A DNA stretch of 64,000 bases, from the NCBI RefSeq assembly GCF_056712565.1, contig NZ_CM160072.1; one strand, written 5' to 3'. Made by a program: the position numbers and the translations under genes. A model generated the notes under the pieces. It did no database searches and had not been told where the DNA came from. It was given only the letters and a program-made list of their open reading frames with translations. Below, one piece after another: positions 13,051 through 64,000 of the stretch (position 1 is the stretch's first letter; each line of letters opens with the position of its first letter).

Positions 13051-14589
13051 ATGGCAAGAGCTGTACACCGGAGTGGGTTAGTGGCGCTGGGCATTGCGAC
13101 AGCGTTGATGGCATCTTGTGCATTCGCTGCCAAAGAGGTGGTGGTGGCGGTAGGATCGAACTTCACCACGCTCGATCCGTATGACGCAAATGACACGTTA
13201 TCTCAGGCCGTAGCGAAATCGTTTTACCAGGGGCTGTTCGGTCTGGATAAAGAGATGAAACTGAAAAACGTGCTGGCGGAGAGTTACACCGTTTCCGATG
13301 ACGGCCTTACTTACACCGTGAAATTGCGGGAAGGCATTAAATTCCAGGATGGCACCGATTTCAACGCAGCGGCGGTGAAAGCGAATCTGGACCGGGCCAG
13401 CGATCCGGCGAATCATCTTAAACGCTATAACCTGTATAAGAATATTGCCAAAACGGAAGCGATCGATCCGACAACGGTAAAGATTACCCTCAAACAGCCA
13501 TTCTCAGCGTTTATTAATATTCTTGCCCATCCGGCGACCGCGATGATTTCACCGGCAGCGCTGGAAAAATATGGCAAGGAGATTGGTTTTCATCCGGTGG
13601 GAACCGGGCCGTATGAACTGGATACCTGGAATCAGACCGATTTTGTGAAGGTGAAAAAATTCGCGGGTTACTGGCAGCCAGGATTGCCCAAACTGGACAG
13701 CATAACCTGGCGTCCGGTGGCGGATAACAACACCCGCGCGGCAATGCTGCAAACCGGTGAAGCGCAGTTTGCTTTCCCCATTCCCTACGAGCAGGCCGCA
13801 CTGCTGGAGAAAAACAAAAATATCGAGTTGATGGCCAGTCCGTCAATTATGCAGCGTTATATCAGTATGAACGTGACGCAAAAGCCGTTCGATAACCCGA
13901 AGGTCCGTGAGGCGCTGAATTACGCCATTAACCGCCCGGCGCTGGTGAAAGTGGCCTTCGCGGGCTATGCAACGCCAGCTACTGGTGTGGTACCGCCGAG
14001 TATCGCCTACGCGCAAAGTTATAAACCGTGGCCTTACGATCCAGTGAAAGCGCGCGAATTACTTAAAGAGGCGGGATATCCCAACGGTTTCAGTACCACG
14101 CTGTGGTCGTCACATAACCACAGCACCGCGCAGAAAGTGCTGCAATTTACCCAGCAGCAGTTAGCGCAGGTTGGGATTAAAGCCCAGGTGACTGCGATGG
14201 ATGCCGGGCAACGGGCGGCAGAAGTTGAAGGTAAAGGGCAAAAAGAGAGCGGCGTGCGGATGTTCTACACTGGCTGGTCGGCTTCAACCGGCGAAGCCGA
14301 CTGGGCTCTATCGCCGCTGTTTGCCTCGCAGAACTGGCCACCAACGCTGTTTAATACCGCGTTTTACAGCAATAAACAGGTGGATGACTTCCTGGCTCAG
14401 GCACTGAAAACTAATGATCCGGCGGAAAAGACCCGCTTGTATAAGGCGGCGCAGGATATCATCTGGCAAGAGTCGCCGTGGATCCCGCTGGTGGTAGAAA
14501 AACTGGTGTCGGCACACAGTAAAAACCTGACCGGTTTTTGGATCATGCCAGACACCGGCTTCAGCTTTGAAGATGCGGATTTGCAATAA
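13051..14589 (+). CDS. gsiB: glutathione-binding periplasmic protein
   Basis: 512 aa; signal peptide [26 protein letters not shown]; SBP family 5 features. Confidence 0.9.
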
Positions 14590-16617: not shown

Positions 16618-18966
16618 ATGCTGAGTTTATACGAAAAGATAAAGATAAGGCTGATAATTTTATTTTTATTGGCAGCACTGTCATTTATTGGTCTTTTTTT
16701 CATCATTAACTATCAACTGGTATCGGAACGCGCGGTAAAACGTGCCGATAGCCGCTTTGAACTTATTCAGAAAAACGTTGGCTATTTCTTTAAAGATATT
16801 GAACGTTCGGCCCTGACATTAAAGGACTCACTGTATTTATTAAAAAATACAGAGGAGATTCAACGTGCCGTGATTCTGAAAATGGAAATGATGCCATTTT
16901 TAGACTCGGTGGGACTGGTACTTGATGATAATAAATATTATCTCTTTTCGCGGAGGGCGAATGATAAAATCGTTGTTTATCATCAGGAACAAGTAAATGG
17001 ACCGCTTGTCGACGAGTCAGGGCGGGTTATTTTTGCCGATTTTAACCCATCGAAACGACCGTGGTCGATGGCTTCAGATGACTCTAACAACAGCTGGAAT
17101 CCGGCATACAATTGCTTTGATCGTCCGGGTAAAAAATGTATCTCTTTTACGCTACACATCAACGGCAAAGATCATGATTTGTTAGCGGTAGATAAAATTC
17201 ATGTCGATTTAAACTGGCGATATCTGAACGAGTATCTTGATCACATCAGCGCTAATGATGAAGTTCTATTTTTAAAGCAAGGTCATGAGATCATTGCTAA
17301 GAATCAACTCGCTCGTGAAAAATTGATTATTTATAATAGCGAAGGTAATTATAATATTATTGATTCTGTCGATACGGAATATATTGAAAAAACATCAGCG
17401 GTGCCAAACAACGCATTATTCGAAATCTATTTTTATTATCCTGGTGGTAATTTATTGAACGCATCAGATAAACTTTTTTATCTGCCGTTTGCTTTCATTA
17501 TTATCGTATTGCTGGTGGTTTATTTAATGACCACTCGAGTGTTCCGTCGGCAATTTTCTGAAATGACAGATTTGGTCAATACGCTGGCGTTTTTGCCCGA
17601 CTCTACGGATCAAATCGAGGCTCTGAAGATTCGTGAAGGCGATGCGAAAGAGATTATCAGCATCAAAAATTCGATCGCGGAAATGAAAGATGCTGAAATT
17701 GAACGGGCAAATAAATTGCTCTCGCTGATCTCTTACGATCAGGAAAGCGGTTTTATTAAAAATATGGCGATTATTGAGTCCAACAATAATCAGTATCTGG
17801 CTGTGGGGATCATCAAACTGTGTGGTCTGGAAGCTGTGGAAGCGGTGTTTGGTGTTGATGAACGCAATAAAATCGTCAGGAAATTGTGTCAGCGAATTGC
17901 CGAGAAATATGCGCAATGCTGCGATATCGTGACATTTAATGCCGATCTCTATTTACTCCTGTGCCGGGAAAATGTACAGACGTTTACCCGTAAGATAGCG
18001 ACGGTAAACGATTTTGACAGCAGTTTTGGCTACCGCAATCTGCGCATCCATAAGTCTGCTATTTGTGAACCTTTGCAGGGGGAAAACGCCTGGAGTTACG
18101 CAGAAAAGCTGAAACTGGCGATTTCCAGTATCCGCAACCATATGTTCTCAGAGTTTATTTTCTGTGATGATGCGAAACTCAACGAAATAGAAGAGAATAT
18201 CTGGATTGCGCGTAATATTCGCCATGCAATGGAAATTGGCGAACTATTCCTGGTCTATCAACCGATTGTTGATATTAACACCCGCACCATTTTGGGCGCG
18301 GAGGCGTTGTGCCGTTGGGTGTCTGCGGAGCGGGGGATTATTTCACCGCTGAAGTTCATTACCATTGCTGAAGATATCGGGTTTATCAATGAGCTGGGCT
18401 ATCAAATTATTAAAACCGCGATGGGTGAATTCAGACATTTTAGTCAGCGTGCGTCGCTGAAGGATGATTTCTTACTGCATATTAATGTTTCGCCCTGGCA
18501 GTTAAACGAACCACACTTTCATGAGCGTTTTACTACCATCATGAAAGAAAATGGCCTGAAGGCGAACAGCCTTTGTGTTGAGATCACCGAAACCGTGATC
18601 GAGCGAATTAATGAACATTTCTATCTCAATATTGAACAACTGCGTAAACAAGGGGTACGGGTATCGATTGATGACTTTGGCACCGGTTTGTCAAACCTGA
18701 AACGTTTTTATGAAATTAATCCAGACAGTATAAAGGTGGATTCGCAATTTACCGGCGATATTTTCGGTACTGCAGGAAAAATTGTGCGCATTATTTTCGA
18801 TCTGGCACGCTATAACCGGATCCCGGTGATTGCGGAAGGCGTAGAGAGCGAAGACGTTGCGCGTGAATTAATCAAATTAGGATGTGTTCAGGCTCAGGGG
18901 TATCTGTACCAGAAACCCATGCCATTCTCCGCCTGGGATAAAAGTGGAAAATTAGTAAAAGAGTAG
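16618..18966 (+). CDS. pdeI: c-di-GMP phosphodiesterase (membrane sensor plus EAL domain)
   Basis: 782 aa; N-terminal TM and periplasmic region; C-terminal EAL motifs (EALCRW, QPIVD). Confidence 0.9.
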
Positions 18967-30959: not shown

Positions 30960-31042
30960 AGACCACGTCAAAATAAGAAGAGGGAAGACAACATTAGCAA
31001 GACTGTGTACATTTGTACACAATTGCAGAGAGAGGAAATGAC

Positions 31043-40617: not shown

Positions 40618-40659
40618 TAGATCATGCTCCTGCATGAAAACCACTACATAAAGCGGGCA

Positions 40660-40678
40660 GGCGTGGCGGGGATACGAG
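40660..40678. other. cos-like site (P2/186-type cohesive end sequence)
   Basis: GGCGTGGCGGGGATACGAG; first 13 nt identical to the 186 cohesive end (GGCGTGGCGGGGAAAGCAT) as recalled from the literature. Confidence 0.45.
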
Positions 40679-40692
40679 CGCGCGCTTGCACC

Positions 40693-40721
40693 TTGATATT
40701 CACGGTTTGGTTAAGTATTGT
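40693..40721 (+). promoter_or_regulatory. putative sigma70 promoter for the protease operon
   Basis: TTGATA-N17-TATTGT about 40 bp upstream of the protease start. Confidence 0.3.
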
Positions 40722-40761
40722 CTTAGTCAGAGTCCATAACATATTACAGAATGGAGTTGTT

Positions 40762-41409
40762 ATGATTGGTCCTGAATATGTCGTAGTTGTTGGCGTGCTT
40801 AATGCAGGTTTGGTTAGTTTTTTAGGAACAGGTTTTTTTATTTCTAAGGATAAAATAATTACTTCCCGCCATGTTATTAATGGGTTTTCTTCTAACTTAG
40901 TTATTTCTCCATCTAATATAAATAACTTTAATAGTTATCAGGATACAAGTGTTGATAAATTTCAATGTATTGGAGTTGATGTTATTGATGAAGATCCAAT
41001 AAAAGACTTATGTGTGTTAAAAATTAAAAATGCACCTGTTTATGAACCTTGCCTAAAAATTGCTACTCTTGACGATGTTAATGTCGGTGAAGATGTGGGT
41101 ATTTTAGGTTTCCCACATTGTAATGAAAATAGAAAAGTATTGACATTTCAAACGGCAAAAATAGGTGCAAAAGTTTTACTTTCAAGCAGTAATATTCAAT
41201 CTAAACATGCCGTTATAAATATCCAAACCAGACCTGGTCAATCGGGATCGATTGTATTTAATTTAAAAAATGACTCGGTAATAGGCGTCTTGGTTGGCGC
41301 TTATGCAAATAATTCTGGAGGTTCTGTTTTGGTTGGAGGTATTAATCCAGCTGAACTACATCAGACAACTTATGCGGTTTCTGCAGAATATGTTAAGGAT
41401 ATGTTATGA
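40762..41409 (+). CDS. trypsin-like (S1/chymotrypsin-fold) serine protease, stand-alone domain
   Basis: 216 aa from MIGPEYVVVVG... (GGAG RBS); candidate triad His in GTGFFISKDKIITSRHV, Asp in DLCVLKI, Ser in RPGQSGSIVF; about 30% GC. Confidence 0.75.
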   Translation: MIGPEYVVVVGVLNAGLVSFLGTGFFISKDKIITSRHVINGFSSNLVISPSNINNFNSYQDTSVDKFQCIGVDVIDEDPIKDLCVLKIKNAPVYEPCLKIATLDDVNVGEDVGILGFPHCNENRKVLTFQTAKIGAKVLLSSSNIQSKHAVINIQTRPGQSGSIVFNLKNDSVIGVLVGAYANNSGGSVLVGGINPAELHQTTYAVSAEYVKDML

Positions 41410-41852
41410 TTGCTATACCAAATGAAGATGCTGAGTCTTGGTTGTCCACTTTAAAAACGTATCAATCTTCATCTGTCAGGAATTTTCTCGAAAATGGCGA
41501 TGAAGAAAAGGCTCTTGAGCTATGGCTAACTGCATCTGGCCCAAGTTCAGTTGCTCAATTTGGCGGTGATAATTCAAAAATGCCGGGAAGAAAAGCGTTT
41601 GTTGAGCAGTTTAAATTAGAGTTTAAGGCTTTTGTATGTGGAGGTGATAAATATGCAGAGGAGAGGGAATGTTTAGGAGCACTGACTGGTGATGTTAAAA
41701 CATACTTTGTAGGGGTGATCTCTTCGGCAATTGCGGGTTCTTTGGGGGCAACAGCAACATTTATTGCTCCAGCTGTAGTAATTATGTTGATAGCTGTCTC
41801 AAAAATGGGAATTAATGCTTGGTGTTCATTAGAGACAACGACAGAATCTTAG
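41406..41852 (+). CDS. small tail-anchored membrane protein, partner of the protease
   Basis: 148 aa; start overlaps protease stop (ATGA); C-terminal Gly/Ala-rich hydrophobic helix YFVGVISSAIAGSLGATATFIAPAVVIMLIAVS; AT-rich. Confidence 0.6.
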   Translation: MIAIPNEDAESWLSTLKTYQSSSVRNFLENGDEEKALELWLTASGPSSVAQFGGDNSKMPGRKAFVEQFKLEFKAFVCGGDKYAEERECLGALTGDVKTYFVGVISSAIAGSLGATATFIAPAVVIMLIAVSKMGINAWCSLETTTES

Positions 41853-42906: not shown

Positions 42907-44582
42907 AAAATCTCCACAATATTACTGGTATTGGCGGACTCGCCCTGCAGTGGTTCGTTAAACAGTGCGTGCATTGTTGCCCAGGCCAGATCGGCGTGGC
43001 TGGCTTCTTCGCTGCGGCTGGCTTCATAGGTCGGGCGGTTGCCGCTGGCGGTGGTTGCGCGACGGATTGCCATGAATGACTGCGCAATGTCGGTGTGTCC
43101 GGCGTCAAACTCCAGACGGCGGTGGCTGATAATGTCGTAGGCCTTGAGTACCAGGGCGTTTTTAACGTTGGGGTTGTAGACAAACTCCCGGACGGCAGGA
43201 AAGAACGCTTTCACGTTCTCATAAACCCCGTGACCGACACCTGTCGAGTCGATGCCGATATATGTCACGTTGTACTGTTCGGTCAGTTTTTTGATGGCGT
43301 CCGCCTGGGCGCGGAAGTCCATCCCGCGCCACTGGTGACGCTCAAGAATACGGAACTTACCGCCCGGCACGGCTGGCGGAGCCACCACCACGCATCCGGC
43401 ACTGTCGCCGTTCTGCGTACCTTTTGCCGGGTCATAACCGATCCACACTTCGCGCCAGCCAAACGGGCGCAGCGCCAGTGCATGAAAGTCGGTCCAGACT
43501 TCCCAGCTGTCCACCATGCACGCCTGCAATTCGCTGAGCGGGAACACAGATGCGAGATCGTCAACGAACTCGCACATCAGCAGGTTCTGGTATTCGTCCG
43601 GGCTGTACTCCATGCGCAACTGGTCGAGGTCGAACAGGTTACAGCCGCCGCGTACCGCATCTTCCACGGTGACTATCTGGCGGTATTGCCCGTCTGCGCA
43701 CAGCAGGCCGGGGGCCAGATTGCTGTGGGACAGGTCGATGTCCACCTTATCGGCTTTGTTGCGCCCACGGTTGAACAACGCGCCGGACCAGAACGGATAA
43801 GCACTGTGGGTCAGGCTGGATGGCGTGGAAAAATAGGTCTGTCGCCATTTCTTGTGAATAGCCATACCGGAAGCCACTTTGCGCAGCTCCTGAAATTTTG
43901 GTATCCAGAAATATTCATCCAGATACAGGTTGCCGTGATAACTCTGGGCCGTGCGGGCATTGGTGCCTAGGAAGTAAAGCGTGGCCCCGTTAGGAAGCAC
44001 CATCGGATCGCCTTTCAGCTCCACCTCCACTTCTTTGGCGAAGTCGATGATGTACTGCTTAAAGACGTGGGCCTGTGCCTTACTGGCGGAAAGGAAAATC
44101 TGGTTACGCCCGGTAAGCAGAGCGTCAATCAGGGCTTCACGGGCAAAGTAAAAGGTTGCGCCGATCTGGCGTGACTTCAGCAGGTTGCGGATGCGGTTGT
44201 TTTTTCCGGCTTCCCACCAGTGGCGCTGGTAGTTGAACATGGAGGAATGGAAGATTTCTTCCAGCTTCTCAATCTGTTCATCGGTGAAAACGTTCTTTTC
44301 CGGCTGACGGCGCGGGCCTTTGTTGCGGTTGGCGACGTTAGGGTTTAAGTCGGCTTCGTTGCCGCCATTGTTAAACTTGCCGATCCGCGCATGGCGCTCC
44401 GACTGGCGCGCCAGCAGGTCAATCTCTTTGAAATCTTTCCCTTCTTTGTGCTCCTTCATAATGAGCTGGCAGTAGCGTGCGGCGGTGGTGAGCTGCATCT
44501 GATCCAGCGGCCCATAGTCACCCCACTTGTCGCGTTTTTTCCAGCTGTTCCAGTAAGTTTTTTCTAACGGAGCACGGCTCAT
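42903..44582 (-). CDS. P: terminase large subunit (P2 gpP-like)
   Basis: About 559 aa (ORF could extend to 44630 or start later); Walker-type ATPase plus nuclease; overlaps the portal start. Confidence 0.88.
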   Translation of the reverse strand: MSRAPLEKTYWNSWKKRDKWGDYGPLDQMQLTTAARYCQLIMKEHKEGKDFKEIDLLARQSERHARIGKFNNGGNEADLNPNVANRNKGPRRQPEKNVFTDEQIEKLEEIFHSSMFNYQRHWWEAGKNNRIRNLLKSRQIGATFYFAREALIDALLTGRNQIFLSASKAQAHVFKQYIIDFAKEVEVELKGDPMVLPNGATLYFLGTNARTAQSYHGNLYLDEYFWIPKFQELRKVASGMAIHKKWRQTYFSTPSSLTHSAYPFWSGALFNRGRNKADKVDIDLSHSNLAPGLLCADGQYRQIVTVEDAVRGGCNLFDLDQLRMEYSPDEYQNLLMCEFVDDLASVFPLSELQACMVDSWEVWTDFHALALRPFGWREVWIGYDPAKGTQNGDSAGCVVVAPPAVPGGKFRILERHQWRGMDFRAQADAIKKLTEQYNVTYIGIDSTGVGHGVYENVKAFFPAVREFVYNPNVKNALVLKAYDIISHRRLEFDAGHTDIAQSFMAIRRATTASGNRPTYEASRSEEASHADLAWATMHALFNEPLQGESANTSNIVEIF

Positions 44583-45930
44583 GACAGTGAAAGCAAAGCG
44601 TTTTCGCATCGGGGTGGAAGGTGCCACCACCGACGGACGCGAAATCCAGCGTGAATGGCTGGAACAGATGGCAGCCAGCTACAACCCGGCGGTGTATACC
44701 GCGCTGATTAACCTTGAGCACATCAAGTCTTATATACCGGACAGCACCTTTAACCGCTACGGCAAGGTGACGGCGCTGTTTGCTGAAGAAATCACGGAAG
44801 GTCCGCTGGCAGGCAAGATGGCGCTGTATGCCGACGTTGAGCCAACGGAGTCCCTGGTGGAACTGGTGAAAAAAGGCCAGAAATTATTCACCTCTATGGA
44901 AGTCAGCCCGAAGTTCGCTGATACGGGCAAAGCCTACCTGGTCGGCCTGGCTGCCACTGATGACCCTGCCAGTCTGGGTACGGAAATGCTGACATTCAGC
45001 GCCAGTGCAGCCCATAACCCGCTGGCAAACCGCAAGCAGAATCCTGCCATGACTGAGCAGTCCGGTCAGCTGCTGGGGCTGGGTGTTGGCAGCACCATTG
45101 CCGGAACCACTGACACCACCGCAAAAGAGCGTGAACCTGTCGATCCGACGCTGATGGTCGATGTGGAATATAAATGCGAGCAGACCAACTTTGACACGGT
45201 GCTGACCTACGCGAAGCTGGACCTGTGGGCGAAGTTTCAGGATTTCCAGGTGCGTATCCGTGACGCCATCGTGAAACGTCAGGCACTGGACCGCATCATG
45301 ATCGGCTTTAACGGCGTGAAGCGTGCGAAAACCTCCAACCGTAGTGAAAACCCGCTGCTGCAGGATGTGAACAAAGGCTGGCTGCAGAAAATCCGTGAGG
45401 ATGCACCGGATCACGTCATGGGCAGCACCACCACGGGCGGCGAAACCACACCGGGTGCGGTGAAAGTCGGTAAAGGGGGCGAATATGCCAACTTGGACGC
45501 TGTGGTGATGGATGCGGTCAATGAGCTTATCGACGTGGTCTACCAGGACGATGACGATCTGGTGGTGATTTGCGGTCGTGAACTGCTGTCTGACAAGTAT
45601 TTCCCGCTGGTCAACAAAGAGCAGGAAAACAGTGAAAAATTGGCAGCCGATATGATTATCAGTCAGAAACGCATGGGCGGTCTGCAGGCCGTGCGTGCGC
45701 CGTTCTTCCCGCCGAATGCGCTGCTGATCACCCGTCTGGATAACCTGTCCATCTACTGGCAGGAAGACACCCGCCGCCGTTCAGTTATCGACAACCCGAA
45801 ACGTGACCGGATTGAAAACTTTGAATCCGTTAACGAAGCCTATGTGGTTGAGGACTACCGCTGCGCCGCACTGGTGGAAAACATCCAGATTGGTGATTTC
45901 AGCGCCGCCGCAGCCGAAACCGGAGCGTAA
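44581..45930 (+). CDS. scaffold/protease (gpO-like N-terminus) fused in frame to major capsid (gpN-like) C-terminal region
   Basis: 449 aa; N-terminus FRIGVEGATTDGR...TSMEVSPKFADTGKAYLVGLAATDDPASLGTE resembles gpO; C-terminus YKCEQTNFD...LDLWAKFQDFQVRIRDAI...GFNGVKRA resembles gpN; interval is about 0.65 kb shorter than the O+N pair in P2. Confidence 0.65.
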   Translation: MTVKAKRFRIGVEGATTDGREIQREWLEQMAASYNPAVYTALINLEHIKSYIPDSTFNRYGKVTALFAEEITEGPLAGKMALYADVEPTESLVELVKKGQKLFTSMEVSPKFADTGKAYLVGLAATDDPASLGTEMLTFSASAAHNPLANRKQNPAMTEQSGQLLGLGVGSTIAGTTDTTAKEREPVDPTLMVDVEYKCEQTNFDTVLTYAKLDLWAKFQDFQVRIRDAIVKRQALDRIMIGFNGVKRAKTSNRSENPLLQDVNKGWLQKIREDAPDHVMGSTTTGGETTPGAVKVGKGGEYANLDAVVMDAVNELIDVVYQDDDDLVVICGRELLSDKYFPLVNKEQENSEKLAADMIISQKRMGGLQAVRAPFFPPNALLITRLDNLSIYWQEDTRRRSVIDNPKRDRIENFESVNEAYVVEDYRCAALVENIQIGDFSAAAAETGA

Positions 45931-54527: not shown

Positions 54528-55930
54528 GCACAAAATTTTATACCCTGCTGACGGATATTGGCGCGGCGAAACTCGCCAGCGCCGCCGCGCTCGGTGTGCC
54601 TTTAAAAATTACCCATATGGCGGTCGGCGATGGCGGCGGAACATTGCCAACGCCGGACGCCAAGCAGACAGCATTGGTAAATGAGAAACGCCGGGCTGCG
54701 CTGAATATGCTCTATATCGACCCGCAGAACAGCAGCCAGATTATTGCTGAACAGGTGATCCCTGAAAATGAGGGTGGTTGGTGGATACGTGAAGTGGGCC
54801 TGTTTGATGAGTCCGGGGTATTGATTGCCGTGGGAAACTGCCCGGAAAGCTATAAGCCGCAACTGGCTGAAGGCAGCGGGCGTACCCAGACCGTGCGCAT
54901 GGTGCTGATTACCAGCAGTACGGACAATATCACCCTGAAAATCGACCCTGCTGTAGTACTGGCAACTCGCAAGTATGTGGATGATAAGGCACTGGAGCTG
55001 AAGGTGTATGTGGATGACCAAATGGCAAAACACCTTGCCGCAGCGGACCCACATTCACAGTATGCGCCAAAAGCCAGCCCGATATTTACCGGAACCCCCA
55101 AAGCGCCGACGCCAGCGGCGGGGAATAATACCACGCAACTTGCGACCACCGCGTTTGTTCAGGCGGCACTGACGGCCCTTATTAATGGTGCGCCAGCCAC
55201 GCTGGACACGCTAAAAGAAATAGCCGCAGCCATTAACAATGATCCGAAATTCAGTACCACCATTAACAATGCGCTGGCACTGAAAGCGCCGCTGTCGAGT
55301 CCGGCACTCACCGGAACGCCAACAGCCCCTACTGCCGCACAGTCGGTTAACAATACACAGATTGCCACTACGGCTTTTGTGAAATCGGCGATTGCAGCAA
55401 TGGTGGGGTCTGCACCTGCGGCACTGGATACATTGAACGAACTGGCGGCGGCGCTGGGGAATGACCCGAACTTTGCCACGACAATGCTTAATGCGCTAGC
55501 AGGTAAACAACCGCTGGACAATACGCTGACTAATTTGAGTGGAAAGGATGTTGCTGGTCTTCTCGCATACCTTGGTTTAGGAGAAGCGGCGAAAAGGGAT
55601 GTGGGCACAGGAGATAATCAGATACCGGATATGTCTTTCTGGTCTTCCGCATCGGGTGGCGTTAATTTCCCTAATGGATTCCAGATGCGATTCGGTGCTA
55701 TCGCTGGTAATGGTGGAAAATTATTTTCTACGCCATTTACAAATCAGTGCTATGGCATTGTTTTCGGACAAACATATGGAGCCAACTACTGGATGTTCAG
55801 CCCGATGTACAGAGCATCTGATCTGAGTAATACCAGTTTTGCATTCATTAACAAAGCCTGGTCTGGAATTCCGGGGACAGGTGCTCAGGACGCTGGTGAA
55901 TCAGTTTTTTATATTGCAGTAGGGTATTAA
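54524..55930 (+). CDS. H: tail fibre protein (gpH-like); C-terminal part lies inside the invertible segment
   Basis: 468 aa; repeated motif TTQLATTAFV / NTQIATTAFV and PxLTGTPTAPT repeats; crossover site inside the gene at 55560–55585. Confidence 0.85.
   Translation: MSTKFYTLLTDIGAAKLASAAALGVPLKITHMAVGDGGGTLPTPDAKQTALVNEKRRAALNMLYIDPQNSSQIIAEQVIPENEGGWWIREVGLFDESGVLIAVGNCPESYKPQLAEGSGRTQTVRMVLITSSTDNITLKIDPAVVLATRKYVDDKALELKVYVDDQMAKHLAAADPHSQYAPKASPIFTGTPKAPTPAAGNNTTQLATTAFVQAALTALINGAPATLDTLKEIAAAINNDPKFSTTINNALALKAPLSSPALTGTPTAPTAAQSVNNTQIATTAFVKSAIAAMVGSAPAALDTLNELAAALGNDPNFATTMLNALAGKQPLDNTLTNLSGKDVAGLLAYLGLGEAAKRDVGTGDNQIPDMSFWSSASGGVNFPNGFQMRFGAIAGNGGKLFSTPFTNQCYGIVFGQTYGANYWMFSPMYRASDLSNTSFAFINKAWSGIPGTGAQDAGESVFYIAVGY
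55560..55585. promoter_or_regulatory. DNA invertase crossover site (left), within tail fibre gene
   Basis: TTCTCGCATACCTTGGTTTAGGAGAA; 21/26 identical to the reverse complement of the site at 57351–57376, 14 bp perfect. Confidence 0.6.
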
Positions 55931-55931
55931 T

Positions 55932-56375
55932 ATGGAAATGGTTTATAGCGCCTCAAATAATAGTTTTTTCGCTAAAAATGATGTGGCGAAATATGAACAG
56001 GCCGGATGGGAACTTGCTGATATTGTCGAAGTGACATATGACACTTACCTGGAATTTATTGAAGACAGAACGTTGCAAGGGAAAGTACGCATCGCGGGTG
56101 ATGATGGCCTTCCCACCTGGGGGGAAATTCCACCGCCAACTCATGAGGAACAAATTGCCGCAGCCGAACTGGAAAAGCAGCAATTGATTAATCAGGTCAA
56201 CGAATACATATACAGTAAGCAATGGCCTGGTAAAGCAGCGATTGGTCGCCTGAAAGGTGAGGAACTGGCGCAATATAATTTGTGGCTGGATTATCTGGAC
56301 GCACTGGAACTGGTTGATACCTCCAGTGCTCCAGATATTGAATGGCCTACGCCTCCGGCAGTTCAGGCCAGATGA
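55932..56375 (+). CDS. tail fibre assembly protein
   Basis: 147 aa; C-terminal LDYLDALELVDTSSAPDIEWP motif shared with the convergent paralog. Confidence 0.8.
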   Translation: MEMVYSASNNSFFAKNDVAKYEQAGWELADIVEVTYDTYLEFIEDRTLQGKVRIAGDDGLPTWGEIPPPTHEEQIAAAELEKQQLINQVNEYIYSKQWPGKAAIGRLKGEELAQYNLWLDYLDALELVDTSSAPDIEWPTPPAVQAR

Positions 56376-56949
56376 CGTCCGGCGCTGTGCTGGTATCTGT
56401 TGCCGTCACCGCATCAATGTAATCCAGCACAGCGTTAAGTCGGGTGTTTTCTGTCTGCGTCAGCTTCCGCCCGGCCTGCAATTTCAGTTGAATCAGACTA
56501 ATGGAAGCCATTGCAGTATCAATCAGTGACTGACGCTGTGCTTCTGCCGCGTCTAGTGTGGCGCTATGCTGTGCCTCAGTATCTGTCACCCATTTCTCAC
56601 CATCCCATTCATCGTATGGCGTTAACGGGGCGATAGTGGTTGTATTTTCAGGGTAATCACCTGGTGCTGTGATTTCTTTTGATTCTCCTGTTTCGGTGCT
56701 AAAAACGATTTCACCGCGATGGTCTGGCACATATTCCCATGAGTTAAAATCTGCAGAACGGCAGATTGCATAACCAGCTTTACATGTAACTGGTGAATCT
56801 AAACAGGAATATGCAGGGATACCGACACCAATGGCAAGATATTCATTTGAAGTAGAAATATATTCCCGAGTTTTACCATCATAGTTATAGACGGTAATAT
56901 TCCCCGCCTTCGTGGCAATAATCTCGCTATTTAATACGGCGTTATCCAT
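56347..56949 (-). CDS. tail fibre assembly protein (alternative, opposite orientation)
   Basis: 200 aa; C-terminal LDYIDAVTATDTSTAPDVIWP. Confidence 0.75.
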   Translation of the reverse strand: MDNAVLNSEIIATKAGNITVYNYDGKTREYISTSNEYLAIGVGIPAYSCLDSPVTCKAGYAICRSADFNSWEYVPDHRGEIVFSTETGESKEITAPGDYPENTTTIAPLTPYDEWDGEKWVTDTEAQHSATLDAAEAQRQSLIDTAMASISLIQLKLQAGRKLTQTENTRLNAVLDYIDAVTATDTSTAPDVIWPELPEA

Positions 56950-57404
56950 TATGCAGCCCTTACGATATAGTTAAATGCAATATTTCGTGGACGGGTTTCG
57001 CTTCCGCCATATGATGATGTAAATCCCGAATATGCCCGGTGTCCCGCATCCGTCGTATTAGCCCAGGAAGGACCGCTAGAAGTATAGATGACCCCATTGT
57101 AATCATGGCCGTGTGCCTCAATGCTCCCGTCCTGAGCAGACAGGAGAGTCCGTCCTGAATCAATTCCTCTTCCATCATCCCACCCACGAATGAATTCGCC
57201 GCGTAAATCTGGCAATTTATTTGTCGGATAAACTTTTGCCAGTTCCGGATACTCTTCGGCAGAAAAAGCTGCACCGTTGCATTTCAGCCAGCCTGTTGGC
57301 GGTGTGACTGAAGGCCACGGAACAGGCACACCTACGGGTAATGCAGAGCCTTCTCCTAAACCAACGTTTAAGAAAATGCAGCGATTACGACTAACTGGCA
57401 TCAT
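56949..57404 (-). CDS. alternative tail fibre C-terminal segment (silent in this orientation)
   Basis: 151 aa ORF whose 5' end contains the right crossover site and encodes VGLGEGS, matching YLGLGEAA at the left site in H. Confidence 0.65.
   Translation of the reverse strand: MMPVSRNRCIFLNVGLGEGSALPVGVPVPWPSVTPPTGWLKCNGAAFSAEEYPELAKVYPTNKLPDLRGEFIRGWDDGRGIDSGRTLLSAQDGSIEAHGHDYNGVIYTSSGPSWANTTDAGHRAYSGFTSSYGGSETRPRNIAFNYIVRAA
57351..57376. promoter_or_regulatory. DNA invertase crossover site (right)
   Basis: TTCTCCTAAACCAACGTTTAAGAAAA, imperfect dyad; inverted relative to 55560–55585. Confidence 0.6.
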
Positions 57405-57431
57405 CCCCGGTTTTTATTCAAGGAGATGATC

Positions 57432-57998
57432 ATGCTTATTGGCTATGTACGCGTGTCAACAAATGACCAGAACACCGATTTGCAACGTAGTGCGCTGAAC
57501 TGCGCGGGATGTGAGCGGATTTTTGAGGACAAAATCAGTGGCACTAAGTCCGACAGACCGGGGCTTAAAAAACTGCTCAGGACACTATCGGCAGGTGACA
57601 CACTGGTTGTCTGGAAGCTGGACAGGTTGGGGCGCAGTATGCGGCATCTTGTTACGCTGATAGAAGAGTTGCGCCAGCGCGGCGTGAATTTCCGAAGTCT
57701 GACTGACAGTATTGATACCAGTACCCCAATGGGCAGTTTCTTTTTTCATGTCATGGGTGCCCTGGCTGAAATGGAACGCGAACTGATAGTTGAACGTACC
57801 AGGGCAGGGCTGGCTGCAGCTCGTGCTAAAGGCAGAGTAGGTGGACGCCGTCCTAAGTTGACTACCGAACAGTGGGCACAGATTGGGCGTTTACTCGAGG
57901 CCGGAGAATCAAGACAGCGTATTGCACTGATTTTTGATGTAGGCGTTTCTACCATTTATAGAAAATTTCCGGCAAATAAGAGCAATGAATCTCCCTGA
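57432..57998 (+). CDS. serine recombinase, Hin/Gin/Pin-type DNA invertase
   Basis: About 188 aa; MLIGYVRVSTNDQNTDLQ with catalytic Ser, resolvase domain plus C-terminal HTH (VSTIYRKF). Confidence 0.9.
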   Translation: MLIGYVRVSTNDQNTDLQRSALNCAGCERIFEDKISGTKSDRPGLKKLLRTLSAGDTLVVWKLDRLGRSMRHLVTLIEELRQRGVNFRSLTDSIDTSTPMGSFFFHVMGALAEMERELIVERTRAGLAAARAKGRVGGRRPKLTTEQWAQIGRLLEAGESRQRIALIFDVGVSTIYRKFPANKSNESP

Positions 57999-58046
57999 AT
58001 CAGCTTTATTTTGATTATCCCTGAAAGCAGACAAATACCGTCATTT

Positions 58047-58064
58047 TGTGTGAATAACGGTACA
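58047..58064 (+). promoter_or_regulatory. late promoter activator site (TGT-N12-ACA) upstream of the sheath gene
   Basis: TGTgtgaataacggtACA centred about 85 bp upstream of the FI start; CAGGAGG RBS at 58125. Confidence 0.5.
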
Positions 58065-58140
58065 ACTGCGCTTAGCTGTTTGTCAGGCACAATCACTTCA
58101 ACATAGGGCGAAGCCTAATCCAATCAGGAGGTTCGCCACT

Positions 58141-59313
58141 ATGGCTCAGGATTACCACCACGGAGTGCGCGTTGTTGAAGTCAACGAAGGCACCCGATCC
58201 ATTACCACGGTGAGCACCGCCATCGTGGGTATGGTCTGCACGGGCGATGATGCCGATGCAAAAATGTTTCCTCTTAATAAACCCGTGCTGATCACTGATG
58301 TGCTGACTGCCAGCGGTAAAGCGGGCGAGTCCGGTACGCTGGCCCGTTCGCTGGATGCCATCGCTGACCAGGCAAAACCCGTGACCGTTGTTGTGCGTGT
58401 GCCGCAGGGTGAAACGGAAGAAGAAACCACGACCAATATCATCGGCGCAGTGACTGCTGAAGGTAAAAAAACAGGCATGAAAGCCCTGTTATCTGCCCAG
58501 TCACAGCTCGGCGTTAAACCGCGCATTCTCGGCGTGCCAGGTCACGACACGAAGGCGGTAGCTACTGAGTTGCTGAGCGTGGCGCAAAGCCTGCGTGGAT
58601 TTGCTTACCTGTCAGCGTATGGTTGCAAGACGGTGCAGGAAGCAATCACTTACCGTGAAAACTTCAGTCAGCGTGAAGGAATGCTGATCTGGCCCGACTT
58701 TACTGGCTGGGACACGGTGCTGAATGCCGAAGCAACGGCTTATGCCACCGCCCGTGCGCTTGGTCTGCGCGCCAAAATTGACGAGCAGACCGGATGGCAC
58801 AAAAGCCTGTCCAACGTAGGCGTTAACGGTGTCACCGGAATTTCTGCTGATGTGTTCTGGGATCTGCAGGACCCGGCAAGCGATGCGGGACTGCTGAACC
58901 AGAACGACGTCACCACCCTTATCCGCAAAGACGGTTTTCGCTTCTGGGGTTCCCGCTGCCTGAGTGATGACCCGCTCTTTGCCTTCGAAAACTACACCCG
59001 CACGGCGCAGGTGCTGACGGACACAATGGCAGAAGCGCACATGTGGGCAGTGGACAAACCGCTGAACCCGTCGCTGGCGCGCGACATTATCGAGGGCATC
59101 CGCGCCAAAATGCGCAGCCTGGTCAGTCAGGGGTATCTCATTGGTGGTGATTGCTGGCTGGATGAGTCGGTGAACGACAAAGACACTCTGAAAGCCGGAA
59201 AACTCACCATCGACTACGACTACACGCCAGTGCCGCCACTTGAAAACCTGATGTTGCGTCAGCGCATCACCGATCAGTACCTGGTGAATTTCGCCAGCCA
59301 GGTCAGCGCGTAA
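58141..59313 (+). CDS. FI: contractile tail sheath protein (P2 gpFI-like)
   Basis: 390 aa; size and position before the tube gene. Confidence 0.88.
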
Positions 59314-59322
59314 GGGGACAAC

Positions 59323-59838
59323 ATGGCTTTACCACGCAAATTAAAACACCTGAACCTGTTTAACGACGGGAACAACTGGCAGGGGATCGTTGAGTCGCTG
59401 ACGCTGCCGAAATTCACCCGCAAATATGAGAAGTATCGCGGCGGCGGAATGCCGGGGGCAGTGGATGTGGATCTGGGGCTTGATGACAGTGCGCTGGACA
59501 CAGAATTTTCCATTGGTGGTACTGAACTGCTGCTGTTTAAGCAGATAGGCAAAGCCACGGTGGATGGCATCCAGTTGCGCTTTACCGGCTCTATCCAGCG
59601 TGACGATACCGGGGAAGTGCAGGCCGTGGAGCTTGTGGTGCGTGGACGTCACAAAGAAGTGGATTCCGGTGAGTGGAAGACGGGCGAAAGCAACACCACC
59701 AAAGTGACCAGTACCAACAGCTACGCGAAGCTGACCATCAATGGTGAGGTGCTCTATGAAGTGGACCTTATCAACATGGTGGAAATTGTGGACGGTGTGG
59801 ACCTGATGGAAGCGCACCGCAACGCTCTCGGCCTCTGA
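59323..59838 (+). CDS. FII: tail tube protein (P2 gpFII-like)
   Basis: 171 aa. Confidence 0.88.
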   Translation: MALPRKLKHLNLFNDGNNWQGIVESLTLPKFTRKYEKYRGGGMPGAVDVDLGLDDSALDTEFSIGGTELLLFKQIGKATVDGIQLRFTGSIQRDDTGEVQAVELVVRGRHKEVDSGEWKTGESNTTKVTSTNSYAKLTINGEVLYEVDLINMVEIVDGVDLMEAHRNALGL

Positions 59839-59892
59839 TGTATCTGAACGGCGCGGAATGCCGCGCCAGAACCCAATTTACAGGACAACAAA

Positions 59893-60195
59893 ATGAGCGA
59901 TAAGCAGACTGAAAAGACCATTCAACTGGATACCCCTATCAAGCGCGGTAAAACAGAAATTACCGAAATTGTGCTGCGTAAACCGCAGTCCGGTGCGCTG
60001 CGCGGTACACGCCTGCAGGCCATTATGGATATGGATGTGAACGCGATGATGACCGTGATCCCCCGCATCTCCAGTCCGGCACTGACTGCACAGGAAATTG
60101 CAGAGATGGACCCGGCAGATCTCACTGCCATGTCGGTTGAGGTTGTCACTTTTTTGTTGAAGAAGTCGGTGCTTGCCGGTTTACCGACAGCCTGA
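59893..60195 (+). CDS. E: tail assembly chaperone (gpE-like)
   Basis: 100 aa; contains slippery site near its 3' end. Confidence 0.8.
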   Translation: MSDKQTEKTIQLDTPIKRGKTEITEIVLRKPQSGALRGTRLQAIMDMDVNAMMTVIPRISSPALTAQEIAEMDPADLTAMSVEVVTFLLKKSVLAGLPTA

Positions 60196-60328
60196 CGGTT
60201 GACGATCTGGTGGCTGATATCGCCACCATCTTTCACTGGCCGCCATCCGTTACTGACGTTATGGCGCTGACCGAAGTGCTGGAATGGCGGTATAAAGCGA
60301 TTCAGAGAAGCGGGGCCAACGATGAGTG
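59893..60328 (+). CDS. gpE+E' -1 frameshift product (tail chaperone extension)
   Basis: Slippery heptamer T_TTT_TTG at 60150–60156; the -1 frame stays open to a TGA at 60326–60328, overlapping the tape-measure start at 60322. Confidence 0.6.
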
Positions 60329-63300
60329 ATAATAACCTGCGCCTGCAGGTCATTCTTAATGCGGTTGACAAACTCACCCGCCCATTCCGTGCTGCACAGG
60401 CCAGTTCGAAAGAGCTGGCTGGCGCAATTCAGAATACCCGAAACAGCCTCAAAGAACTGAATAAGCAGGCTGGCAGAATTGATGAATTTCGCAAGACGCG
60501 CTCGCAACTAGCCATAACAGCCAACAACCTGAACGCAGCCCGCGAAGAGGCGGCAAAACTCGCCACACAATTTGCTGCCACTAACAGGCCAACCGCCGCG
60601 CAGGCAAAGTTATTCAGTCAGGCCAAAACACGAGTACAGGAACTTCAGCAGACCTATAACGGCTTGTTGGGGGCGGTCCAAAGACAACGTCAGGCACTTA
60701 AAGAATCAGGGATTGATACCAGACAACTCAGTAGTGCCCAGCGAGAACTTAAGAAAAATGCTGAAGAAACAAGGCAGGCACTGGAGGGTCAGCAAAAAGC
60801 ACTTAAACGTCTGGGTGAACAACAGGCACGGATGAACGCTGCCAGAGAACAATACTCAAGACGGCTTGAAGTGCGCGATCGCATCGCAGGAGCCGGAGCC
60901 ACTACCACGGCTGCAGGGCTGGCAATGGGTGCGCCAGTGATGGCGGCAGTAAAAAGCTATACCAGCATGGAAGATGCCATGAAAGGTGTGGCAAAGCAGG
61001 TCAATGGTCTGCGTGACGATAATGGCAACCGCACTGTACGTTTTTATGAAATGCAGGATGCCATCAAGGCTGCCAGCGAACAGTTGCCGATGGAAAACGG
61101 TGCGGTGGACTTCGCTGCACTGGTTGAAGGTGGTGCGCGCATGAACGTCGCAAACCCTGACGACAGCTGGGAAGACCAGAAACGTGACCTGCTGGCCTTC
61201 GCCAGTACGGCAGCAAAGGCGGCAACAGCCTTTGAGCTGCCAGCGGATGAACTGTCAGAAAGTCTGGGGAAAATCGCCCAGCTCTACAAAATACCTACCC
61301 GCAATATTGAACAGCTCGGCGATGCACTGAACTATCTGGATGATAACGCCATGTCGAAAGGGGCGGACATCATTGATGTGATGCAACGTCTGGGCGGTGT
61401 GGCTGACCGTCTGGATTATCGTAAAGCGGCGGCACTGGGTTCCACCTTTCTGACACTGGGCGCTGCGCCGGAGGTTGCAGCCAGTGCAGCAAACGCGATG
61501 GTGCGTGAATTGTCCATTGCCACCATGCAAAGCAAGAGTTTCTTTGAAGGGATGAATCTGCTGAAACTCAATCCTGAAGTGATTGAAAAGCAGATGACGA
61601 AGGATGCGATGGGAACTATCCAGCGTGTGCTGGAGAAGGTGAACGCACTGCCGCAGGACAAGCGTCTGTCTGCCATGACCATGTTGTTTGGTAAAGAGTT
61701 TGGTGATGACGCGGCGAAACTGGCAAACAACCTTCCGGAACTGCAGCGCCAGCTAAAACTGACAGCGGGCAATGATGCGCTCGCTTCCATGCAGAAAGAA
61801 TCCGACATTAACAAGGACTCACTTTCTGCGCAGTGGTTGCTGATCAAAACCGGAGCGCAGAACACCTTCAGCAGCCTGGGCGAGACGCTGCGCCAGCCGC
61901 TGATGGATATTCTGTACACGGTGAAAAGCATCACGGGGGCGTTGCGCCGCTGGGTGGAAGCTAACCCGGGACTGACAGGCACACTGATGAAAGTAGCCGC
62001 TGTGGTGGCTGCGGTTACCGTAGGCCTCGGCACCTTAGCGGTAGCGCTGGCTGCAGTGCTGGGGCCGCTGGCAGTGATCCGTCTGGGATTCTCTGTGCTG
62101 GGTATCAAAACGTTACCTTCCGTTACGGCAGCAGTAACTCGAACCAGCAGCGCGTTGTCCTGGCTGGCTGGCGCACCACTGGCACAGCTGCGACGCGGGC
62201 TTGCTTCATCGGGCAACGCCGCGGGTTTACTTACTGCGCCGTTGTCGTCTTTGCGCCGCACGGCATCACTGACGGGAAATGTCCTGAAAACTGTAGCAGG
62301 TGCGCCGGTTGCACTGTTGCGGTCTGGATTATCCGGTTTACGTGCGGTTGCTGTGATGTTTATGAATCCACTGGCAGCACTACGCGGTGGACTGACCGCC
62401 GCAGGCGCGGTGCTGCGAGTACTGGCATCTGGTCCACTGGCGATGTTGCGCGTTGCCCTGTATGCCGTATCTGGTCTGTTAGGTGCTCTGCTTAGTCCAA
62501 TAGGTCTTGTGGTTACAGCACTGGCGGGTGTGGCACTGGTTGTCTGGAAATACTGGCAACCCATCACCGCATTTCTCGGTGGCGTGGTGGAAGGATTCAA
62601 AGCAGCGGCTGGTCCCGTCAGTGCCGCATTCGAACCACTTAAGCCTGTGTTCCAGTGGATTGGCGACAAAGTGCAGGCGTTGTGGGGCTGGTTTACTGAT
62701 CTGCTGACGCCCGTTAAGTCGACCTCTGCTGAACTGCAGAGCGCAGCGGCAATGGGGCAACGATTCGGGGAGGCACTGGCGGAAGGACTGAATATGGTCA
62801 TGCATCCGCTGGACTCCCTGAAATCCGGCGTATCCTGGTTGCTGGAAAAACTCGGCATTGTCAGTAAAGAGGCCGCAAAGGCAAAACTGCCGGAACGCGT
62901 GACGCGTCAGCAACCTGCGACGGTGAATGCAGACGGCAAAGTGATGATGCCATCGGGTGGTTTTCCGTCATGGGGATATGGCTTTGCGGGGATGTATGAC
63001 AGCGGCGGCTATATCCCGCGCGGGCAGTTTGGCATCGTCGGTGAAAACGGGCCGGAAATTGTTAACGGCCCGGCAAATGTGACCAGCCGGAAAAATACCG
63101 CTGCACTGGCTGCTGTTGTTGCCGGAATGATGGGCGTTGCTGCCGCGCCTGCAGAGCTTCCACCGTTACATCCTTTGGCACTTCCCGCGAAAGGCGGCGA
63201 AGCGATGGTGAGTCGTGCAGCCACTGTGCCGCCCGTTCAACGGATTGAGGCACCGACGCAGATCATCATTCAGACGCAGCCAGGACAAAGTGCGCAGGAT

Positions 63301-63399
63301 ATTGCGCGGGAGGTGGCCCGTCAGCTTGATGAACGTGAACGCAGGCTGAAGGCAAAAGCCAGGAGTAACTACAGCGATCAGGGGGGATACGACGCATGA
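60322..63399 (+). CDS. T: tail tape measure protein (gpT-like)
   Basis: 1025 aa; coiled-coil N-terminus, Gly/Ala-rich hydrophobic central segments. Confidence 0.9.
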   Translation: MSDNNLRLQVILNAVDKLTRPFRAAQASSKELAGAIQNTRNSLKELNKQAGRIDEFRKTRSQLAITANNLNAAREEAAKLATQFAATNRPTAAQAKLFSQAKTRVQELQQTYNGLLGAVQRQRQALKESGIDTRQLSSAQRELKKNAEETRQALEGQQKALKRLGEQQARMNAAREQYSRRLEVRDRIAGAGATTTAAGLAMGAPVMAAVKSYTSMEDAMKGVAKQVNGLRDDNGNRTVRFYEMQDAIKAASEQLPMENGAVDFAALVEGGARMNVANPDDSWEDQKRDLLAFASTAAKAATAFELPADELSESLGKIAQLYKIPTRNIEQLGDALNYLDDNAMSKGADIIDVMQRLGGVADRLDYRKAAALGSTFLTLGAAPEVAASAANAMVRELSIATMQSKSFFEGMNLLKLNPEVIEKQMTKDAMGTIQRVLEKVNALPQDKRLSAMTMLFGKEFGDDAAKLANNLPELQRQLKLTAGNDALASMQKESDINKDSLSAQWLLIKTGAQNTFSSLGETLRQPLMDILYTVKSITGALRRWVEANPGLTGTLMKVAAVVAAVTVGLGTLAVALAAVLGPLAVIRLGFSVLGIKTLPSVTAAVTRTSSALSWLAGAPLAQLRRGLASSGNAAGLLTAPLSSLRRTASLTGNVLKTVAGAPVALLRSGLSGLRAVAVMFMNPLAALRGGLTAAGAVLRVLASGPLAMLRVALYAVSGLLGALLSPIGLVVTALAGVALVVWKYWQPITAFLGGVVEGFKAAAGPVSAAFEPLKPVFQWIGDKVQALWGWFTDLLTPVKSTSAELQSAAAMGQRFGEALAEGLNMVMHPLDSLKSGVSWLLEKLGIVSKEAAKAKLPERVTRQQPATVNADGKVMMPSGGFPSWGYGFAGMYDSGGYIPRGQFGIVGENGPEIVNGPANVTSRKNTAALAAVVAGMMGVAAAPAELPPLHPLALPAKGGEAMVSRAATVPPVQRIEAPTQIIIQTQPGQSAQDIAREVARQLDERERRLKAKARSNYSDQGGYDA

Positions 63400-63881
63400 T
63401 GATGGTGCTGGGATTGTACGTGTTTATGCTGCGCACCGTGCCGTATCAGGAGCTGCAGTATCAACGCAGCTGGCGACATGCGGCAAACAGCAGGGTAAAC
63501 CGTCGTCCGTCCACGCAGTTTCTGGGACCGGAAAACGACATGCTGACGCTTTCCGGTGTTCTTATGCCGGAGATAACAGGCGGCAGGCTGTCGTTACTGG
63601 CACTGGAGCAGATGGCAGAACAGGGGAAAGCATGGCCCCTGATTGAAGGAAGCGGCACGATTTACGGCATGTATGTGATTGAGGGACTGAATCAGACTAA
63701 AACGGAGTTTTTCCGCGACGGTATGCCGCGCCGGATTGAGTTCACCCTGTCGCTAAAACGGGTGGATGAATCCCTGTCCGATATGTTCGGTGATCTCAGT
63801 ACTCAACTGAATAATCTGCAGGACACGGCAACGTCTGCTTTAAGCGATATCAGTAAAACGGTTGGAGGGCTGCTGTCGTGA
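63396..63881 (+). CDS. U: tail protein (gpU-like)
   Basis: 161 aa; follows T with overlapping start. Confidence 0.85.
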   Translation: MMMVLGLYVFMLRTVPYQELQYQRSWRHAANSRVNRRPSTQFLGPENDMLTLSGVLMPEITGGRLSLLALEQMAEQGKAWPLIEGSGTIYGMYVIEGLNQTKTEFFRDGMPRRIEFTLSLKRVDESLSDMFGDLSTQLNNLQDTATSALSDISKTVGGLLS

Positions 63882-64000
63882 ATTTCAGCTCTGAACTGCT
63901 TAACAAAAGCAACAAAACTCCGGCATTCAGCATCAGTATTGCAGGCAAGGATATCACCACTGTGCTGGACAACCGCCTGATGGGGCTTACGCTGACGGAT
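63878..64000 (+). CDS. D: tail protein gpD-like, partial (continues beyond window)
   Basis: ORF opens at GTG overlapping the U stop (VNFSSELLNKSNKTPAF...) and runs to the window edge. Confidence 0.6.
   Translation, partial: MNFSSELLNKSNKTPAFSISIAGKDITTVLDNRLMGLTLTD

Follow-up and report, generated by a model that had tools for sequence, protein, structure and literature searches.

A short inverted repeat before the tail sheath gene of a P2-like Escherichia coli prophage is very probably the activator-binding site of a tail-operon late promoter

Late promoters of the P2 family are switched on by small phage-encoded proteins. For P2 itself, one account lists four Ogr-dependent late promoters with the consensus TGT-N12-ACA, and gives CX2CX22CX4C as the zinc motif of Ogr-type activators (PMC3931495). 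In a second account, members of the Ogr family are described as small zinc-binding activators that bind inverted repeats at approximately -55 of late promoters, and whose action requires contact with the alpha subunit of RNA polymerase and is rpoA109-sensitive (PMC3152322). Two sites of this kind, both directly before a tail sheath gene, are annotated in the database records of P2 and 186. The P2 record places the activator site of pF at 17555-17583 and the FI ATG at 17652, with transcription starting at 17626-17628. In the 186 record, the B protein has its site at 14091-14110, transcription from pJ begins at 14159, and the ATG of the sheath gene is at 14183. Late promoters of P2-type prophages can also be trans-activated by the delta protein of P4.

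We analyzed a stretch of 64,000 nucleotides (hereafter the window) in which a P2-like prophage extends from approximately 31.7 kb to the window end, and followed up a preliminary description of an inverted repeat located upstream of its tail sheath gene. Judged from sequence, this short repeat very probably serves as the binding site of an activator at the late promoter of the tail operon in a P2-like E. coli prophage, a promoter that we call pF. The finding carries little importance beyond annotation, in that it puts an unannotated regulatory feature in its place, and the anatomy proposed for pF (dyad, -10 and start point) is a prediction that can be tested.

The inverted repeat before FI and the predicted promoter

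The prophage shares approximately 96% identity with Escherichia phage Cartapus (Peduoviridae, Elveevirus) and with related phages of E. coli and Klebsiella, and its portion between 57350 and 64000 is 100% identical to the ybjL-adjacent prophage of E. coli MS15052 and of other O1:K1:H7-type strains. The features discussed here are collected in Table 1. The inverted repeat heads the operon, lying directly before FI, with FII, E, T, U and D coming after this gene. Of 5,426 complete E. coli genomes, 828 contain the 142-bp intergenic region in which the repeat lies; RefSeq gives no annotation for this region.

Read directly, the repeat is TGTgtgaataacggtACA, an exact match to TGT-N12-ACA as the consensus is given in PMC3931495; its extended form, TTGT-N12-ACAA, covers 58046-58065. 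The preliminary description had reported such an element at 58047-58064, centred about 85 bp before the start of the sheath gene, and these claims stand: both half-sites and the 12-nt spacer are found there, the centre (58055.5) and the downstream FI ATG at 58141 are 85.5 nt apart, and the next ORF is 100% identical to a protein annotated as 'phage tail sheath protein'.

Table 1. Positions in the window of the predicted promoter elements, genes and deletion junctions (strand as reported; a point means no strand)
Feature	Position	Strand	Basis or remark
231-bp deletion junction	44548..44549	.	blastn against L003 and L084 (the intact MS15052 prophage); junction sequences
O(1-156)::N(60-353) fusion ORF	44581..45930	+	In-frame 555-bp deletion at 45049/45050, GCCA microhomology
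Predicted pV activator site, TGTatcttcttttatACA	52035..52052	.	Second exact dyad; centre 56.5 nt before V ATG at 52100
Serine DNA invertase gene	57426..57998	+	Directly upstream of pF; mapped to 57432-57998 by RefSeq annotation of the identical prophage
Activator-binding dyad of predicted pF	58047..58064	.	Sequence, conservation, geometry of P2 pF and 186 pJ
TGT half-site of the dyad	58047-58049		
12-nt spacer of the dyad, gtgaataacggt	58050-58061		
ACA half-site of the dyad	58062-58064		
Vestigial -35, CTGTTT	58076..58081	+	17 nt upstream of the -10-like hexamer; conserved part is TG only, 58077-58078
-10-like hexamer, CAACAT	58099..58104	+	Family pattern nAnnAT; invariant A54, A57, T58
Predicted transcription start	58111..58113	+	Transferred from the annotated starts of 186 pJ and P2 pF
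Shine-Dalgarno, AGGAGG	58126..58131	+	9 nt before FI ATG; GGAG kept in relatives
FI, tail sheath, first gene of the F operon, 390 codons	58141..59313	+	100% identical to L084 17142-18314
FII, tube	59323-59838	+	ORF and RefSeq annotation of the identical prophage
E	59893-60195	+	ORF and RefSeq annotation of the identical prophage
E'	60210-60329	+	ORF and RefSeq annotation of the identical prophage
T, tape measure	60322-63399	+	ORF and RefSeq annotation of the identical prophage
U	63396-63881	+	ORF and RefSeq annotation of the identical prophage
D	from 63878, cut by window end at 64000	+	ORF and RefSeq annotation of the identical prophage

Downstream of the dyad, the core promoter is weak, as in other late promoters of the P2 family. 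A standard sigma-70 scan of 57300-58300 returned no consensus promoter; the -35 region is reduced to a conserved TG, and the -10-like hexamer keeps the conserved pattern nAnnAT, with its last T located 48.5 nt from the dyad centre. In P2-family late promoters, a recognisable -10 combined with a poor or absent -35 points to dependence on an activator. By analogy with the annotated promoters of P2 and 186, transcription from pF is predicted to start 7-9 nt past the last T of the -10, which would place the dyad centre at approximately -55.5 to -57.5. An Rfam scan of 57900-58250 gave nothing meaningful, and thus offers no RNA-element alternative.

The sequence-level features by which an activator-dependent late promoter of the P2 family can be recognised are all present, which supports the assignment of pF to this class. 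The promoter type proposed in the preliminary description is thus borne out by the dyad, its distance from the -10, the missing sigma-70 consensus, the position before the operon and the conservation described below. We estimate at roughly 0.88 the probability that the dyad is the activator site of pF, in a P2-like prophage (Peduoviridae, near the Elveevirus Cartapus) located beside ybjL in an ST95-like E. coli. The promoter is a previously uncharacterised instance of the well-known late promoters that depend on Ogr, B or delta.

Searches by tblastn showed that no homologue of Ogr, of 186 B or of the ogr/Delta-like protein of MS15052 is encoded in the window. In the identical MS15052 prophage, the ogr/Delta-like gene, at L084 24070-24288, lies 90 nt past D, a position that maps 1,069 nt beyond the window end. 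Its product, WP_000972391.1, has 72 residues and the CX2CX22CX4C motif, and shows 51% identity with P2 Ogr and 54% with 186 B. By extension from that prophage, an ogr-like gene is expected in the source genome approximately 1.07 kb past the end of the window.

If pF works as its counterparts in P2 and 186 do, induction would lead to synthesis of the phage's 72-residue zinc-finger protein of the Ogr/B/delta type. This activator would bind the TGT-N12-ACA dyad, centred approximately 56-58 nt upstream of the start, and polymerase would be recruited to the weak core formed by the CAACAT -10 and the vestigial TG of the -35, so that transcription would run from about 58111-58113 through the tail genes. 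In the annotations of P2 and 186, the terminator past ogr or B also ends the transcript of the F or J operon, which includes the activator gene, and pF would thus feed back on its own activator. In the 186 record, the activator promoter pB is repressed by CI; the window's prophage has a 186-like early region. Binding, start point and activator dependence at pF are predictions carried over from P2 and 186; what the analysis establishes is the sequence of the element, its geometry and conservation, the operon that it heads and the lack of a consensus promoter.

Sister sites, the head defect and the state of the prophage

Two further dyads of the same form were found before late genes of this prophage lineage. 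The first, for which we predict a role as the activator site of pV (Table 1), has the extended form TTGTATCTTCTTTTATACAA at 52034-52053. It has the geometry of P2 pV, for which the record annotates a start that falls on the V start codon. A pF-like spacing between dyad and -10 at pV (52087-52102) would place the start on or beside the V ATG, and the V mRNA would then be leaderless or nearly so; P2 pV is likewise annotated with a leaderless or nearly leaderless V mRNA. The other dyad, TGTGTGGTTGTCGGTACA (longer form TTTGTGTGGTTGTCGGTACAAAT), lies between P and O in the intact MS15052 prophage (L084 2934-2951), and has TTTGTGTG...CGGTACAA in common with pF. Sister sites of pF are thus found at pV in the window and at pP/pO in the intact prophage, the latter being deleted in the window.

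Together with its core promoter, the pV dyad lies within a segment of non-homologous, AT-rich cargo that occupies 49727-52098 between the tail gene S and V and replaces approximately 170 bp of the phage relatives. This cargo includes a 652-aa ORF (49966-51924) that matches models of AriA/OLD-type defence ATPases (E = 1e-21 for AriA, E = 2e-11 for Old), and a perfect tandem repeat of the heptamer CTAACCT (6.9 copies, 51959-52006) approximately 30 nt upstream of the predicted pV dyad. One more TGT-N12-ACA, at 51234-51251 within the cargo ORF, has no flanking T and no operon context, and was judged to be a chance match. A second cargo hotspot of the prophage is found at 40624-41852 beside the portal gene, where ORFs of 261 and 148 aa match A and B of the candidate defence system PDC-M35 (E = 8e-94 and 4e-58, respectively).

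Compared with the intact MS15052 prophage, the window differs by four events only. A 231-bp deletion has removed codons 1-40 of the terminase gene P, pP, the shared dyad and pO to approximately its predicted start, and an in-frame deletion has joined the scaffold gene O to the capsid gene N. The third event is an inversion of the tail-fibre segment, and the fourth an extra CTAACCT unit, so that the window has one copy more than MS15052 and the copy number evidently varies. The defective head gene of which the preliminary description spoke is the in-frame O::N fusion, and the damage further includes the lost 5' end of P and the loss of pP/pO. Neither deletion was found in any of the 5,426 complete E. 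coli genomes, and the gene index has no entry for the O::N fusion protein; that ogr follows D in the source genome is for this reason deduced from the MS15052 prophage.

The invertible tail-fibre segment (55560-57376) is bounded by 27-nt imperfect inverted repeats at 55560-55586 and 57350-57376; alternative fibre C-termini and chaperones lie at 55932-56375 (+), 56347-56949 (-) and 56949-57404 (-). The reversed orientation of the segment in MS15052 indicates that the adjacent serine invertase is evidently active in the lineage.

In the midst of these changes, the cis elements of pF and pV are intact and identical to those of the intact prophage. The promoter pO drives the tail genes X, R and S as well as the lysis cassette (46.9-49.8 kb); its deletion is thus predicted to silence these genes too, and an intact pF, from which the preliminary description took the late tail operon to remain activatable, does not mean functional tails. 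With pP and pO deleted and the tail and baseplate promoters intact, the prophage is unable to form virions by itself and is probably unable to form complete tails. The identity of 57350-64000 to the intact prophage of MS15052 makes the deletions look recent and local.

These observations bear on the possibility that the site is a genuine Ogr-type site whose promoter is dead or irrelevant here, either because the activator has been lost or silenced or because FI transcripts arise solely by reading through from the invertase gene. The two deletions unique to the window do show a prophage in decay, the ogr gene lies outside the window, and no terminator was found between the invertase gene and the dyad or FI. 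We nevertheless consider such a state unlikely, since the whole of 57350-64000 is unchanged from a prophage that is intact and carries ogr 90 nt past D.

The promoters pV and pF might now serve as orphan switches, fired by Ogr or delta from a superinfecting P2-like phage or P4-like satellite, although we regard this as an improbable extension of the data. An orphan pF could still be switched on through trans-activation by delta; neither a P4-like element nor a delta gene was found in the window. Were the idea true, a headless prophage would make sheath, tube and baseplate proteins upon infection, and the tail proteins so made would hamper the incoming phage or supply it with tail parts.

Counts, conservation and other readings of the dyad

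With only six specified bases, TGT-N12-ACA is a pattern of low information, and a chance match with no function has to be weighed. The window holds 13 matches, compared to 15.2 +/- 3.7 in shuffled sequences, and several of these are clearly unrelated to late promoters, such as those at 59357 and 61352, which lie inside ORFs. The bare pattern is thus not enriched, and the case for function rests on placement and conservation. The extended form TTGT-N12-ACAA is found three times (1.45 +/- 1.3 expected), and two of the three matches directly precede the operons of V and FI, in the same geometry as at P2 pV and pF. From a density of 2e-4 per position, we infer that a chance match within +/-4 nt of the expected place would have P of approximately 2e-3 per promoter.

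Another exact match, the near-perfect palindrome TGTGTACATTTGTACACA at 31004-31021, lies just left of the prophage between divergent ORFs for an MFS transporter and a TetR-family regulator, and is probably the operator of that host regulator. It exemplifies that bare TGT-N12-ACA is not specific for Ogr.

Conservation was analyzed in 80 IMG/VR loci whose FI protein is at least 91% identical in amino-acid sequence, which yielded 69 distinct upstream sequences of 200 nt. Each of the 69 has exactly one TGT-N12-ACA, whose centre lies 78.5-85.5 nt upstream of the ATG. The half-sites and the N12 spacing are thus retained throughout, despite spacers that differ widely (for instance GTGAATAACGGT, GCCATTTTTCAT, GTAAAGCATTGC, ATCAACCACGGT and CTCATTTACTTC) and that, like the upstream flank, have diverged beyond alignment. 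In an anchored alignment of 21 representatives of less than 80% identity, no column is invariant other than those of TTGT, ACA and G32 and, in the -10, A54, A57 and T58. Column 31 is T in 20 of the 21 and column 32 is G in every one of them, these two being the TG of the vestigial -35, and no gaps occur between dyad and hexamer, which places the nAnnAT element at a fixed distance. An unanchored MAFFT alignment gave the same invariant columns, and upstream flanks that do not align. We note that the 80 loci are homologous, so that part of this conservation is due to common descent, despite the divergence of spacers and flanks.

Many families have a terminator hairpin (CCCCGCG...CGGGGATTTTTT) or unrelated cargo right beside the dyad, and in one relative (L035) homology with the window starts only a few nucleotides before TGT. 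Such breaks close to the dyad indicate that it moves together with the FI operon and lies where a mosaic hotspot ends.

A fortuitous match is hard to reconcile with these data. Across relatives in which spacer and flanks diverge, neither the six bases nor the flanking T nor the distance to the -10 varies, the geometry fits two annotated sites, and sister sites occur before V and between P and O. We therefore hold chance to be very unlikely as the origin of the dyad.

Equally slight is the probability that the conserved element is a binding site for CRP (cAMP receptor protein), a site that would subject the tail operon to catabolite control. The CRP consensus is TGTGA-N6-TCACA, and class I CRP sites are centred at -61.5 or -71.5. 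A candidate site, TGTGA-ataacg-GTACA, can be read at 58049-58064, with a spacing like that of TGT-N10-ACA; its left half TGTGA is perfect and 8 of 10 core positions match the consensus. The critical G:C is missing from the right half, however, and the centre, at approximately -55 to -56 of the predicted start, would fall on the wrong face of the helix for class I activation. In addition, four close relatives (L007, L017, L023 and L035) carry TGTATGA, which breaks the CRP half-site and keeps TGT-N12-ACA, and other families, for example TTGTGCCATTTTTCATACAA, do not have the N10 arrangement. What is conserved is thus not the CRP site. A class I CRP promoter does resemble the predicted pF in having an upstream dyad, a dimeric activator that contacts alpha-CTD and an overlapping TGTGA half-site; it differs in its N10 spacing and its position at -61.5, as compared to N12 and approximately -56 for the window dyad, whose conserved element is not the CRP consensus.

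Finally, a recombination site of the invertase system (gix/hix-like) or an operator of the invertase gene can practically be dismissed, even though the dyad lies 49 nt past the invertase stop (57998) and recombination sites are dyads too, since comparison with MS15052 places the real inversion end points at 55560-55586 and 57350-57376, away from the dyad, and relatives with no invertase upstream, which carry a terminator hairpin or other cargo in its place, conserve the dyad just as well.

Comparison with P2, 186 and P4

A search by blastn in 'distant' mode with the 156-bp pF region recovered the Elveevirus-like group only, and not P2. The comparison with P2 and 186 was for this reason made by anchoring on annotated sites: geometry values are counted from the first T of TGT, and the sites of the two phages were taken from their record annotation. 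The three sites are closely similar in layout. In the window, pF reads TTGTG...ACA (N12), its centre lying 85.5 nt from the ATG and 48.5 nt from the last -10 T (CAACAT). P2 pF reads TTGTG...CCA (N12), with 82.5 nt from centre to ATG, 57.5 nt from centre to start and 49.5 nt from centre to the last -10 T (GAAAAT), and 186 pJ reads TTGTG...CCA (N12), with corresponding distances of 81.5, 57.5 and 48.5 nt (GACAAT).

The promoter of P2 heads the same FI-FII-E-T-U-D operon and has the same TTGTG left half-site, with a weak -10 and no -35, and its dyad is annotated as the activator site, 57.5 nt before the mapped start. It differs in being TGT-N12-CCA and in having its -10 1 nt farther from the dyad centre; it is fun(Z) that lies upstream of it, as compared to the invertase gene in the window, and Ogr is 51% identical to the activator of the window's prophage lineage. 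The alignment with P2 PF that the preliminary description suggested can thus be made for the left half-site and the geometry, and breaks down at the right half-site, where P2 has CCA and the window has ACA.

186 pJ is similar in its location directly before the sheath gene, in its TTGTG left half-site and in a distance from centre to -10 that is identical to that of the window (48.5 nt). Its activator is likewise a 72-residue C4 zinc-finger protein whose gene lies just past D. On the other hand, its right half-site is CCA and not ACA, the spacer and the remainder of the promoter cannot be aligned, the activator is merely 54% identical to that of the window's prophage lineage, and terminator t45 precedes the pJ site at the place where the window has the invertase gene.

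The form TGT-N12-CCA is shared by P2 pF (L001 17561-17578), P2 pO/pP (L001 3063-3080) and 186 pJ (L085 14093-14110), and P2 pV fits the pattern only with N11. In all 69 Elveevirus-like variants of the FI upstream region, by contrast, the ACA half-site is perfect. The perfect TTGT-N12-ACAA of this lineage may thus mark a distinct specificity class of Ogr-type activators. The Psid and PLL promoters of P4 would follow the same logic, with recognition of TGT-N12-ACA being common to delta-dependent promoters.
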